Source of the DNA: Eledone cirrhosa | Taxonomy: Eukaryota | Assembly (NCBI GenBank): GCA_964016885.1 | Contig: OZ024755.1 | Span: forward strand, 34,534,001 to 34,598,000 | Direction: 5' to 3' | DNA: 64,000 nucleotides | Part shown: piece after piece, positions 5,338 to 61,352 of the stretch | Position numbering within the stretch: the first letter of the stretch is position 1 | Layout of the letters: each line of letters begins with the position of its first letter | Program-made: the position numbers and the translations under genes | The notes under the pieces: generated by a model | What the model saw: only the letters and a program-made list of their open reading frames with translations | Database searches by the model: none | What the model was told of the DNA's origin: nothing

Positions 5338-5507
5338 AACGAAGGAAATGTGGTAAGGAACCAGGTGGACCATAACGCACCAAAGTACTCAATACTTGAG
5401 GTAGTAGAGTGGGTAATAGGAACCAGTAAGACCCCGACAGCTGAGCTCAAGCCGTTTCGACGTCGAAACGGCTTGAGCTCAGCTGTCGGGGTCTTACTGG
5501 TTCCTAT
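5338..5507 (-). mobile_element. Fold-back Penelope-like terminal fragment, family H1 (3' half of a hammerhead)
   Basis: Perfect 92-bp palindrome at 5416-5507 plus an unpaired ~78-bp tail, inside (TA)n. Each arm carries GAAAC-GGC-loop-GCT-GTC-GGGG. Confidence 0.7.
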
Positions 5508-5984
5508 ATATATATATATACAGATACATGTATATATATACACATATATATATATATACATATACATATATATACACATGTATATATACACATATATATA
5601 CACATATATATATAATTTTTTGTATTAAAGCATATAAAAAGGTGTCAAAATGGCAGAAAAGTTAGGGGGTCAGATTAAGTACCTCAGTACTTATTCCAGC
5701 TCATTGTGTTTTAAAAGGTAATTAAAAAACTTGGTGCCAGGAAGGGCATCAAAGATGGATGAACCATTAAGAAATATAAGCATGTGCTTAGGGCATCAAA
5801 GGAAGAGGGGCACAATTTTATTCTAATTAAATGTATTTGTCATCCGCACCAAAATTTTTACAGACTTTACATATGGGGTGCACTATAATATATAATATTT
5901 TAAGTATTTAGGGCCTCAAAAGGACTTAATCCAGCCCCGAAAGAAACAGCCATTTCTTATTTGCCAAGCTCTATGAAAACTGGA

Positions 5985-6531
5985 TTAATCTTTTAGCATT
6001 TAAATCGGCCAGAATTCTGTTGAAACTGGCTGTAACCGGCCACTCATACTGATGTTAAGGTATTGTCCTCAAAGTAAATAATATCAAAATCTCATAGATT
6101 CGATATTATGTGAGGTAAAACCTTTACAGTGAAAATATAATAATAAATATATATGTATGGTCCCATGACTCCAGATAGAGTCGTAGGGGCGCTGTATTGA
6201 CATACAGTGTTTCTTGGGTATTTTAAGCTTGGCGGAGCCCATCCCTCTCCAGACCTGAGTAGAGCAGATTTCTTCCAGAGAAAGATAGAAAGTGAGAGAG
6301 AGGAAATGAGAAAGAGATATAGAGGAAGAATCAGCCCCAGTACTAGACTGAAACTTTTTTTTTATTAACCTGGAAAGGAGGAAAGGCAAAATAGACCACA
6401 GCGGGATTTGAACTCAAAGAGCAGAGAGGCGGAACAAATACCATAAAGCATTCTATCTGACATTCTAACAAATCTGCCAATTTTCTGCCTACAATAGTAA
6501 ATATAGAATAATGTAAATGCTAAAGGGTTAA
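5985..6531. mobile_element. TTAA/piggyBac-type MITE interrupted by a SINE
   Basis: TTAA-flanked ends (…TAAATGCTAAAGGG|TTAA). A SINE-B variant at ~6160-6490 lies between the two MITE halves. Confidence 0.75.
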
Positions 6532-6637
6532 CCAACCTTATTGATTCTTCTTAATCTGAAAAAGAAAGTAAAGAAAAATTACTATTTATATTGTGCTACA
6601 GAAATAGTCTCAGTACTATATAGGTAAATTACATAAT

Positions 6638-6825
6638 TATTTCTACTTTTGGCACAAGGCCAGCAATTACCCAGTGTATTACTGGTACTTTATTTTATCG
6701 ACCTCGTAAGGATGAAAGGCAAAGTTAACCTCGGCTGGATTCGAACTCGGATCACAAAGGGCCGTAACACTTTGCTGCAAAGCATGACGTCCGACCCTCT
6801 ACCGATACTGCCAATTCACCGCCCT
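6638..6825 (-). mobile_element. tRNA-derived SINE family B, full length with 17-bp TSD
   Basis: B-box GAGTTCGAATCC, central GCCTTTCATCCTTACGAGGTCGATAAAATAAAGTACC, and TSD TAGGTAAATTACATAAT at 6621-6637 and 6826-6842. Confidence 0.9.
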
Positions 6826-6954
6826 TAGGTAAATTACATAATACAGCAATATTAGTACTAATGTTAGTGCAGTTTATCATCAAAGCCATTCTAATTGTGA
6901 TTGGTGCATTTTTTTCAAGATGTGTCTGCTTTATTCAATTGAGTAAAGCTAGAT

Positions 6955-7365
6955 TTAACTCTTTAGCAATTAAACCGGCCAGATTCTCTCACCTCCTTCT
7001 GTTCAAACTGGCTGTAACCAGCCACTGATACTGAAGTTAAGGTATTGTTCTCAAAATAAATAATATCAAAATCTCATAGATTCGATATTATGTGAGATAA
7101 AGTCTTTACCATGAAAATATAATAGTAAATATAGAGTAATGTAAATGTTAAAGGTTTAAACCGGTTGTATCCGGCCAAAATTCTTTCACCTCTTTTTGTT
7201 CAAACCAGCCCTAACTAGCTACTCATATTGCTGTTAAGGTACTGTTCTCAAAATACTCAAAATAAATAATATCAAAATCTCATAGATTCGATACTATGTG
7301 AGATAAAGCCTTTACAATGAAAATACAACAGTAAATATATAGTAATGTAAATGCTAAAGGGTTAA
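6955..7365. mobile_element. Tandem dimer of the TTAA MITE
   Basis: Two ~205-bp copies head to tail with TTAA at the outer ends. Confidence 0.85.
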
Positions 7366-58675: not shown

Positions 58676-59489
58676 ATATATATGTATAACAAAACCCTCA
58701 AATAGGGTCTTCTGGTTTAACCTAACTTTTAGCACGAGTGTAGTGTCTAATGTAGTTAAATATTTCCTCTTTGTGATAAAAAAAACAACACTTTACTTTT
58801 AGCTATAGATGCCTCAGTCATTAAAAAAAAATAAAGTAGAAGACAACCATCATTACATGGATAAGCATACAACTTTAATAGCTTAATGCAGCAGAACTAG
58901 GAACATTAGAAATACACCAAGTCAACTATCAGAACATATTTGCTGCAACATTATGCCCTGTCACCTTAATGGCAAAAGACTCGCAACAACTTTAGGGCAT
59001 ATAGCTGAAATAACATCTACAGGTAATGTTGAAATACATTTAAAAGAAGGTATATACCTCATAAATACAAGCTTCAAATCCAGAGATGACATAAAGTTTA
59101 CATCTTTATCCCACTTTTCTTGGAATTTGAAAGGCTGGAAATGACAACAACACCATAATTTGGTTGATAGTAGAAATCCCAACACACTCTAATGGATCAG
59201 AAAAACACAACCTTGGCTTGGATTAAAAAATTTAATATAGCGATAGGATGTAATAATGTGCCATAAAAAAACAAACAGGTAGCATAAAACATAGATACAA
59301 GAGAAAAATAAAACTGCAATTTCACATGAATATGGATTCGAGTAAAAGGATTCTGGTTAGAAAAATTCCTAACAAAATTCTTGAACGAATTGAGAAAATA
59401 TTAATTACTGAAGGACTTAATATTCATCCTAGAAAATAATTATTCTAACTTCAATGGTAATAACTATAGACAAATACCTGGGACTGTAA

Positions 59490-60260
59490 TGCGAGTTTCC
59501 TCAACTAACTCTATCCTTGTTGTGTCATATTCGGGAGCCCTTCTTCTTCGGCCACTTATTCCTGAAAGTGTTGTGGGGGCAGAGTCCTCAAACATTCCTT
59601 CCAGCGAATCCTGTCAGAAGCAACCATCTGCAACTGATCCAGTTGGATCCCCAAGTGACAGCAGCCAAGCTCATGGATGTTATCCAACCATCTTGCTTGG
59701 GGTCTACCCCTGGGTCTCCTACTTTTGGTTTTGCCCGTAAAATCTCTTCAGCAATTCTTTCCCTGAGACATTCTAACCACATGTCCATAGTATCAGAGCT
59801 GTGATCTCTCAATTGGGAGAAGTAGCAGCTCTACCTGGAGTGACTCTCCAGTGATTCTTTCCTGAGACATTCTAACCACATGTCCATAGTAGCAGAGCTG
59901 TGATCTCTCAATTGGGAGAAGTAGCAGCTCTACCTGGAGTGACACTCCAGTGATTCTTTCCTGAGACATTCTAACCACATGTCCATAGTATCAGAGCTGT
60001 GATCTCTCAATTGGGAGAAGTAGCAGCTCTACCTGGAGTGACACTCCAGTGATTCTTTCCTGAGACATTCTAACCACATGTCCATAGTATCAGAGCTGTG
60101 ATCTCTCAATTGGGAGAAGTAGCGGCTCTTCCTGGAGTGACTCTCTGATCACCAAGCTACACACTTTATTGACTAACGTTACTCCAAAGACCCTTTGAAG
60201 GAATCCCATATCGGCTGCTTGTATTCGTGATCATATTCTTTCGGTCAATTCCCAAGATTC
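59490..60260 (-). mobile_element. RTE-like LINE fragment with a 99-bp tandem expansion (4 units, 59752-60146)
   Basis: LLLPIERSQL..YGHVVRMSQERI. The unit recurs at 59763, 59862, 59961 and 60060. Confidence 0.8.
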
Positions 60261-60699
60261 ATCCTATAAAATAATTATTCTAACTTCAATGGTAATATCT
60301 AAAGACAATACCTGGGACTGTGTAGCAAATCAACGTTTCCTCAACCAACTCTATACTTGGTGTGGCATATCTAGGGGGCCGAATATACAAACATTTCAGA
60401 TTAAGGTTTGGCAACAGTTTCCATAAATATTTATTAGACTGGAAATAGTTTCACTGAAGGAGGTAGAGAAGTTCAAGTATCTCTGAGCTGAATTATGTGT
60501 AAGAATTGCAAGAACTGGTGCAGTAATGCGCCAGCTTCAGCATTCAGTAATTAGAAAAAAGGGGGTAGGTGTAAAAGCTAAACTCACTATCTTTAATTTG
60601 GTATTAGTGTCAACTATTACTTATGGTCATGAATCTCAGGTAATGACAACTGGAAATGCTTTCTGGATTATTGTTTTATGATGTGAACATACAACCTCA

Positions 60700-60960
60700 A
60701 TAAATTCCATGGCAGTGTTAAATATACAATGGAATATAGTAACAAGCAACTGTCTCTAAAATTGTCAAGAAGGCCGAGGGTGTCTTAGCATCACTCAGTA
60801 AAACCTTTGTCAGCCACTCTCCAGCTATCTATTTAAGGCTGTATATAGCTATGGTGCGGCCACACTTAGAATTTCCATCTCCAGTCTGAAACCCCTATCT
60901 TGCTCAGAAAATTGACAGGCTGGAAACTGTTCAGAGACGTGCAACCAGGCATCAACCATA
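60700..60960 (+). mobile_element. CR1-like LINE fragment
   Basis: LYIAMVRPHLEF..P.*NPYLAQKIDRLETVQRRATR. Confidence 0.8.
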
Positions 60961-61177
60961 CTCTGTACGTCAATACTCATCTTTTTCTATTTCTCTGAGG
61001 GTTCTAAACCCCACTATCAGGCTAAAAAAAAATGTCTTTAGTCAAAAAAATACGGTGAAAGCTTATATTACTAATTTATATATATATATATAAATATATA
61101 TATATATATATGTACATACATATAGACATATATATAGACATATATATATAGGCACATATATATATAGGCACATATAT

Positions 61178-61352
61178 ATAGAAAAAAGTTAACCCTGACG
61201 GCAGAGCTCAAGCTGTTTCGAGTCCGTTCTGAGTCCAGAAATAGCCGTCGAAACGGCTTGAGCTCTGCCGTCGGGGTTAAACTTTTTCCTATTACCCACT
61301 AAGTATTGAGTACTCTGGTGCATTATGGTCCCTTCCCACACCTCCTTCGTTA
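61178..61352 (+). mobile_element. Fold-back fragment, family H1
   Basis: Inverted arms with GAAACGGC..GCCGTC-GGGG and an unpaired tail, inside (TA)n. Confidence 0.7.

Follow-up and report, generated by a model that had tools for sequence, protein, structure and literature searches.

We analysed a 64,000-nt stretch of the Eledone cirrhosa genome (NCBI GenBank assembly GCA_964016885.1, contig OZ024755.1, positions 34,534,001 to 34,598,000, forward strand), hereafter the window, and focused on a family of short repeats within it, H1, whose copies are considered here as candidate insertions of a Penelope-like element (PLE). The window holds four copies of H1, which were found where a preliminary description had placed them (at 5338, 25485, 56891 and 61178). 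A profile built from seven arms recovered those 7 arms at E 3e-11 or better in 64 kb, and revealed no fifth copy, as the next profile matches were no better than E 1.5 in 64 kb. The copies and their parts are as follows, with strands given in the hammerhead sense explained below and coordinates counted from the first letter of the window.

5339-5507, minus strand: copy A, whole
5339..5415, minus strand: copy A, tail, 77 nt, ending in (TA)n
5416..5462, minus strand: copy A, tail-bearing arm, to CCTAT
5461..5507, plus strand: copy A, tail-less inverted arm, with 0/43 differences to its partner from GAAA to CCTAT
25485-25670, plus strand: copy B, whole
25485..25545, minus strand: copy B, tail-less inverted arm, holding the central loop
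25544..25593, plus strand: copy B, tail-bearing arm, starting 7 nt upstream of GAAA, predicted cut at 25573/25574
25594..25670, plus strand: copy B, tail, 77 nt
56892-56957, plus strand: copy D, whole, a 66-nt plain 5'-truncated tail fragment between (TA)n tracts
61178-61350, plus strand: copy C, whole
61178..61221, minus strand: copy C, tail-less inverted arm, extending 2 nt upstream of GAAA
61220..61292, plus strand: copy C, tail-bearing arm, holding the central loop, predicted cut at 61272/61273
61293..61350, plus strand: copy C, tail, 58 nt, with internal deletions of 10 and 9 nt

Copies A, B and C share one layout when followed in the hammerhead sense: (TA)n, short inverted arm, junction, direct arm, tail and again (TA)n. 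TA runs border all four copies, and because the flanks are TA microsatellite, no target-site duplication can be discerned. All seven H1 arms are 5'-truncated, an inverted 5'-truncated copy adjoins the 5' end in 3/4 copies, and a one-sided tail is present in each of the three palindromic copies, while a direct tandem of the pseudo-long terminal repeat (pLTR) was found in 0/4 (such a tandem is seen on long insertions, of which the window has none). With lengths of 66-186 nt, the copies are too short for an open reading frame (ORF) encoding reverse transcriptase (RT) or endonuclease; they are non-coding and dead on arrival. A 28-letter H1 motif had no match in the GTDB genomes, which comprise prokaryotes only and are therefore uninformative either way. 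An inverted-repeat search of the window gave 777 pairs, and the 25 listed all fell in one microsatellite block.

The palindrome of copy A is perfect over 92 bp (5416-5507), as previously described, with its centre between 5461 and 5462. The short arm of all 3 palindromic copies stops at TT(C/T)CTAT beside (TA)n, which bears out the shared outer end proposed earlier; since TAT is common to element and target, this end is fixed only to 4 positions, and the chance of two further copies sharing that 4-position window is 0.0016 under a uniform null. The fold-back centre does differ among copies, with 6, 26 and 30 nt between TTTC and GAAA in the three palindromes. Copy D is indeed tail-only, but begins 10 nt inside the tail and not at the arm-end site. 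An assembly fold-back artefact was considered for copy A and rejected: A stops at the same base as the imperfect copies B and C, and its tail is not palindromic. In addition, the combination of GGTTCCT and a following TACC is found twice, at the short-arm end and about 60 nt later, near the tail end (e.g., 5358-5374 and 5407-5426), and TTCCT precedes both H1 element ends; the repeated GGTTCCT/TACC is possibly a protein-binding or start signal.

Hammerhead-like motifs in H1 and in comparator repeats

The H1 motif consists of G12-A13-A14, helix III, a loop with the palindrome GAGCTC, a GUC triplet and a G run. The preliminary description had taken GAAACGGC-loop-GCCGUC for stem II; these segments correspond instead to helix III and the cleavage triplet. 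Helix III has 5 bp in B and C and 6 bp in A, where two changes keep or add pairing, too few to count as covariation. In the tail-bearing arm of A, 4 nt of a putative helix II 3' strand are followed by GAAA, helix III with its GAGCTC loop, GUC and GGGG, and the predicted GUC cut site lies at 5436/5435. When the element was shuffled preserving dinucleotides, C-GAAA with a helix III of at least 5 bp and UH was obtained in 174/20000 shuffles, and the same motif with a GUC triplet in 15/20000. A loose form of the motif has 11 matches in the window, 4 of them in H1 and the others at 7 non-H1 places. Rfam gave only sub-threshold matches of microRNA type at two H1 loci and, among the matches listed for the whole window, chance microRNA-like hairpins but no hammerhead family. 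The hammerhead reading therefore depends on the motif test, which suggests that H1 likely carries a truncated hammerhead ribozyme.

The claim that only the 3' half of the hammerhead is kept stands in part: the CUGANGA half is missing, but B and C also keep most of a putative helix II. The 5' strand of helix I is also absent, all copies ending just before the place where CUGANGA and helix I would be expected, and the central loop motif occurs in B and C only. The centre of B can form a seamless hairpin of 9 bp (-12.2 kcal/mol), in agreement with PLE hammerheads, whose helix II has 7-8 bp and a G10.1-C11.1 pair (PMC4209133). Seven bases of this hairpin could equally belong to the other arm's own sequence, and the strong folding of the centre (z -4.71) comes from a fold that includes the palindrome itself. 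In C, the 30 nt before GAAA open with GA-G, which may represent the last two core bases plus G10.1, or junction filler, and only a 5-bp inner hairpin folds in this upstream region.

Hammerhead-like motifs are also found elsewhere in the window, including two further inverted repeats that served as internal comparators.

27536..28781: comparator of a second family, single copy, inverted arms 27536-27651 (minus) and 28560-28675 (plus)
45563..46124: comparator of a third family, single copy, inverted arms 45563-45790 (minus) and 45839-46051 (plus)
25866, 45353, 54800 and 55491, plus strand: further complete type-I hammerhead-like motifs, with a looser motif at 54565

The arms of the 27536 comparator are 116 nt long, differ by 3 mismatches and each contain CTGATGA and GAAAC; about 110 nt extend past the plus arm only, (TA)n lies on both sides, and the interior of about 900 nt shows motif-like stretches by eye that might mark a PLE coding remnant. 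The arms of the 45563 comparator measure 228 and 213 nt, with about 73 nt extra past the plus arm only; its core is a variant (CCGAAGA/CCAAAGA, with GAAAC-AATT-GTA and a palindromic loop 3), and its helix II is unusually long, at 45-60 nt (-18.7 kcal/mol in the left arm). As both comparators, which have both halves of the core and lie in (TA)n, share the arm-plus-tail layout, this is a property of hammerhead-bearing repeats here, and not of H1 alone. Moreover, the comparator arms do not stop in helix II, so that a stall at this place, if real, would be specific to H1. A post hoc observation is a TCCTAT at 0-4 nt from the tail-less end of both H1 and the 27536 family, absent from the 45563 family; it could be a start signal common to the former two.

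A descriptor of the complete type-I hammerhead matched the window 6 times, whereas 30 Markov controls gave 0.1 matches on average; the descriptor was written after some of the motifs had been seen, and it misses both comparators because of their variant cores or helix II ends. The motif at 25866 follows copy B at a distance of about 200 nt; it has its first 15 nt in common with that at 45353, and its upstream flank recurs at 62144-62246 (minus strand). An 11-mer common to the H1 loop and the 45563 element was treated as chance, on a rough, uncomputed estimate that a few matches of this kind would be expected per window. As to other palindromes, those at 19768-20047 and 35683-35950 lack a TA flank and, by eye, a core of this kind, and that at 29764-29816 has no evident hammerhead core or TA flank; the first of these overlaps a repeat unit that is also arrayed in tandem near 17100-17850 and 40500-41200.

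Origin of the palindromes

The alignment between GAAA and the arm end has 43 columns, of which 13 are variable; in 6 of these (columns 17, 20, 29, 30, 35 and 36) a variant is common to both arms of one copy, while 0/13 group the long against the short arms. The two arms of a copy differ by 0 substitutions in A, 1 substitution and 1 gap in B, and 3 substitutions and 1 gap in C; between copies, 3-9 substitutions separate the arms. In a tree of the arms, those of A form one pair and those of C another, with support of 94/96 that falls short of the star threshold of the tool, while the arms of B are unplaced. The arms thus group by copy, and therefore each palindrome derives from one template variant or was homogenised later.

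The upstream limits of the arms were measured with C as the only upstream template. Relative to GAAA, and given as tail-bearing/tail-less arm, they fall at -4/-4 in A, -7/-21 in B and -30/-2 in C, all six within 2-30 nt upstream; the tail-less arm of B would reach 26 nt if the seamless helix II reading is right, and the first 9 nt of the tail-bearing arm of C are either template or junction filler. Both judgeable junctions have an overlap of 2 nt (CG at 5461-5462 in A, AG in B), the random expectation for at least 2 nt being 0.16 each; the value for C is circular, because C is the template. In B the loop is found at 25527-25543 (minus strand), within the tail-less arm, and in C at 61231-61247 (plus strand), within the tail-bearing arm, so that either complementary DNA (cDNA) can be the longer one. 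The clustering of six 5' ends 2-30 nt upstream of GAAA agrees with the previous suggestion of abortive synthesis within stem II, but the 5' strand of helix II is ambiguous and the two comparators do not stop there; joining by complementarity, a nearby RNA 5' end, or inheritance from one palindromic master would be alternatives for this clustering.

Taking these results together, we regard H1, with moderate confidence, as the extreme 3' ends (the pLTR portion) of a hammerhead-bearing, (TA)n-targeting PLE, whose palindromes would be built anew at insertion. Its components differ in strength: a PLE-type origin is very probable, a second start site defined by sequence is likely, and the joining of two cDNAs, as opposed to fold-back or inheritance, is favoured to a lesser degree. 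In the mechanism that we propose, an RT/GIY-YIG protein would cut both strands of (TA)n, as seen in vitro for an anole PLE on AT-rich DNA. One target 3' end would then prime at a distal start site on the RNA, yielding the tail-bearing arm, and the other at a proximal site about 77 nt further in and 20 nt past the cut, yielding the tail-less arm; two start sites have been demonstrated in vitro elsewhere, and the common end point is observed in H1. The template would be uncleaved RNA, as six/six arms span the predicted GUC cut site and the RNA was therefore not cleaved there. Both cDNAs break off early, at most 30 nt upstream of GAAA, and would be joined head-to-head through about 2 nt of complementarity (the overlaps present in A and B), followed by fill-in. 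A plain truncated copy such as D may arise when only the distal site is used, or when the second end is captured directly. The proposal that H1 records an integration mechanism with two priming or joining sites is supported by these data, although such features have already been published for PLEs (PMC8557442, PMC3846280, PMC11167929). A two-cDNA model for PLE inversions was not found in a literature search, from whose coverage subscription papers were largely absent.

Several observations weigh against this interpretation. No CUGANGA was matched upstream of the loop in any H1 copy, and since there is neither this half nor an attached RT/endonuclease frame, both the ribozyme and the PLE assignment are inferred; likewise, the Rfam hammerhead family had no match at the B or C loci at E up to 10, nor was it among the 150 matches listed of 226 for the whole window. 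A link between copy C and the RT remnant described below was rejected as unshown, the remnant being far more decayed, with other repeats between; moreover, C starts with its inverted arm in a TA tract. The minimum free energy folds of three arm-plus-tail RNAs were no more stable than shuffles (z -0.89 to +0.77), special stability being absent across these three and three tail-only folds (z -1.22 to +0.97), and the arm of C prefers a rival hairpin, in which the 3' strand of helix II pairs with the 5' strand of helix III. The H1 tail is about 2x the 30-40 nt reported for PLEs. Regarding the comparators, their tails are only inferred because each family is represented by a single copy; their interiors gave no Pfam match better than E 0.79 (12 reading frames, four candidate regions) and no match to a 16-sequence PLE profile at E up to 10, and it is solely their layout and hammerheads that suggest PLE status. 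The number of palindromes is also small (n = 3). Furthermore, in the anole study (PMC11167929) the two strands did not differ in start site, so that the use of one site per strand is not established by it, and the start sites reported there had no homology to the DNA at the cut, whereas H1 shows the TAT overlap. This overlap coincides with the fixed end, and n = 3 leaves it as a possible cause of that end: if any of the 3 internal TAT sites could serve, all three copies would choose the same one with p = 0.11.

The latter point leads to the view that the second end reflects opportunistic internal priming, the cut (TA)n end annealing to any accessible UAU. Such priming has been proposed for L1 inversions. 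It is favoured by the short arm ending on a target-shared TAT in 3/3 copies and by the small number of competing sites behind the p value just given. Nevertheless, the TAT used is in each of the three copies the one most distant from the 3' end; if 2 nt of TA sufficed, there would be about 10 competing sites and p would be about 0.01; and the tail-less end of the 27536 comparator follows AACT, not TAT. As defined start sites have, in addition, been demonstrated in vitro for a PLE (PMC11167929), we consider this explanation highly improbable. It is also quite unlikely that H1 is a preformed, non-autonomous palindromic unit of the type of a short interspersed nuclear element (SINE) or a miniature inverted-repeat transposable element (MITE), copied whole. 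Outer end and centre would then be inherited; later, deletion or flipping would have altered the centres, and conversion inside the single copies would have made the arms alike. This would account for the identical short-arm end and for six 5' limits within 30 nt, and conversion could also have made the arms of A identical even though the tails of A and B differ at 7/79 sites. Against it, the variable columns group by copy (6) and never by arm type (0/13), all three centres differ, and arm divergence varies by copy (0; 1 and 1 gap; 3 and 1), as for separate insertions of unequal age; moreover, the two ends are not equivalent, as terminal inverted repeats (TIRs) would be, and D is plainly 5'-truncated.

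Another explanation keeps the same PLE origin and lets one strand fold back and self-prime to a fixed point, set by endonuclease action or by the join to the target, with the tail left unpaired. Published work points in this direction, since PMC3846280 interprets junction palindromes as self-priming and PMC8557442 attributes the tail to endonuclease resolution of an intermediate. Fold-back would also explain the private variants common to both arms, the seamless 9-bp hairpin (-12.2 kcal/mol) at the centre of B is in keeping with it, and nascent cDNA ends at -7, -14 and -21 to -24 would be able to self-pair. However, fold-back should leave a loop, and copy A is without any spacer; a single tail-primed cDNA puts the loop in the tail-bearing arm, whereas B has it in the opposite one and would need a later inversion of the spacer. 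Furthermore, the best snap-back hairpin for a nascent cDNA ending at -7 has 6 bp and implies a centre without a second GAAA, a type of centre that none of the 3 copies shows. We therefore judge fold-back to be unlikely and retain the joining of two cDNAs as the preferred account. Its extension to the hammerhead PLE families of this genome at large, in which two RT start sites would lie 70-110 nt apart (a two- to threefold excess over the published tail length), a protein dimer would prime both target strands on one uncleaved RNA, and helix II would act in H1 as a stop-and-join point, is tentative and somewhat doubtful.

If this reading of two sites with a stop-and-join point were true, thousands of palindromes would be a base-resolution record of the unexplained inverted-repeat step of PLEs. 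Short, recent copies with an oriented loop would show which cDNA ran further, and fold-back and two-cDNA joining would thereby be countable genome-wide. At present, H1 counts as an ordinary repeat family whose interest lies mainly in annotation, as palindromes of the H1 type are readily mislabelled as MITEs or microRNA hairpins.

Other features of the window

A decayed RT lies at 59348-59530 on the plus strand, where a profile of 16 named RT/GIY-YIG proteins gave E 9e-8. Two weaker RT pieces follow, one at 60293-60451 (E 0.17), the other at 60645-60755 (tblastn E 0.001). The remnant, the only coding one in the window that could be placed, matches RT plus GIY-YIG proteins named from bivalves, and its presence indicates that this class is represented locally. 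Between 59348 and 60755 the motif-4 region occurs twice, with a tandem-repeated fragment of another element (about 59780-60140) in between; the remnant and copy C lie on one strand, 420 bp apart, with the remnant coming first. In a word-indexed protein search with a 45-aa RT piece, 0/12 candidates scored.

The GC content of the window ranges from 22 to 51% per 2 kb, about 20% of it is masked as simple repeat, and ARAGORN detected no tRNA genes in it. The combination of TA-rich spacers, a SINE and RTE-like fragments resembles that of an octopus genome. A SINE-like repeat that bears a B-box-like motif is present in at least 14 copies, several in close pairs and some inverted, at places that include the following.

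15089-15450: SINE-like repeat
41445-41942: SINE-like repeat
47832-48208: SINE-like repeat
63267-63714: SINE-like repeat

A derivation of H1 from this tRNA-type SINE, prompted by a B-box-like stretch in copy C, was rejected by profile and alignment: a profile of 14 SINE copies had no match at E up to 100 in 4 H1 arms, and in local alignments 3/500 shuffles reached the gappy score of C and 397/500 that of B. In addition, broken reading frames at 359-2834 (plus strand) were recognised by eye as resembling a Helitron Rep/helicase.

Comparison with known retroelements

An assignment of H1 to MITE or TIR elements was rejected, as one arm is followed by a tail of 58-77 nt, the three centres differ and D has no arm. 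In L1 twin priming, an inverted 5' segment results from second-strand priming, with a join by microhomology. There, the segments come from separate parts of the RNA, and the internal site is variable; in H1, by contrast, both arms copy the same stretch, one end is fixed and there is no poly(A). Non-LTR (long terminal repeat) retrozymes (bioRxiv 10.64898/2026.07.22.740005; PMC4209133) resemble H1 in being short, non-coding and PLE-related, with a type-I hammerhead; they are, however, head-to-tail tandems with a complete ribozyme per unit, whereas H1 is single, dispersed and head-to-head with an incomplete core. H1 was thus rejected as a non-LTR retrozyme, failing on tandem arrangement and complete ribozyme.

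Naiad PLEs, for which two Octopus species are listed in PMC8557442, share with H1 the preference for (TA)n, tandem or inverted insertions and a tail; they are described there as being without canonical hammerheads, some having core halves, in which H1 differs. According to the same work, canonical hammerheads are usual outside Naiad/Chlamys, and the Neptune clade is mentioned with a microsatellite bias. Four short H1 motifs were absent from the supplement of PMC8557442, a weak result given that its long entries were only partly covered, and across two paper supplements, this one included, H1 motifs had no match in the parts searched. In Octopus vulgaris, Penelope-like elements make up 6.83% of the genome, in 190 families (PMC13282606).

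The closest functional data come from the Poseidon element of Anolis carolinensis (PAc, PMC11167929), for which, in vitro, both target strands were cleaved and extended, a dimer was predicted, two RT start sites bracket the tail, and unprocessed RNA was the main substrate, steps after initiation being left unvalidated. PAc and H1 are alike in having two end points downstream of the hammerhead with the tail between them, an AT-rich target and insertion from uncleaved RNA. In PAc, RT starts 111-118 nt into the ORF and the cut site is at +26, while the proximal end of H1 lies 20 nt past its cut site and overlaps the target by TAT; the two were compared by description.

Endonuclease-containing (EN+) hammerhead PLEs (Neptune, Penelope/Poseidon, Nematis and Hydra elements; PMC8557442, PMC3846280) come with the same structures as H1: a head-to-head, inverted and truncated copy, a one-sided tail, a hammerhead motif near the 3' end, microsatellite targets and heavy 5' truncation. 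In PMC8557442, PLE insertions often have an inverted 5'-truncated copy adjoining the 5' end and a tail of 30-40 bp at either end, hammerheads sit in the pLTRs, microsatellite targets hide target-site duplications, and the way in which tandem and inverted structures arise is counted among the open questions. In PMC3846280, the inverted pLTR overlaps the direct one by 15 bp and is 37 bp the shorter of the two, with an optional 31-bp tail and junction palindromes, and PMC4209133 describes hammerhead pairs 100-700 bp apart on opposite strands, with a palindromic loop 3; the reviews PMC8969392 and PMC6765202 repeat these features. H1 differs from EN+ PLEs in its tail of 58-77 nt, in both arms being only 45-75 nt long, and in having no ORF, direct pLTR tandem or CUGANGA half in four copies. 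Its long tails, found in three families of the window (58-110 nt), and a loop in either arm are mildly unusual. Overall, H1 is probably a further member of the PLE insertions already described.

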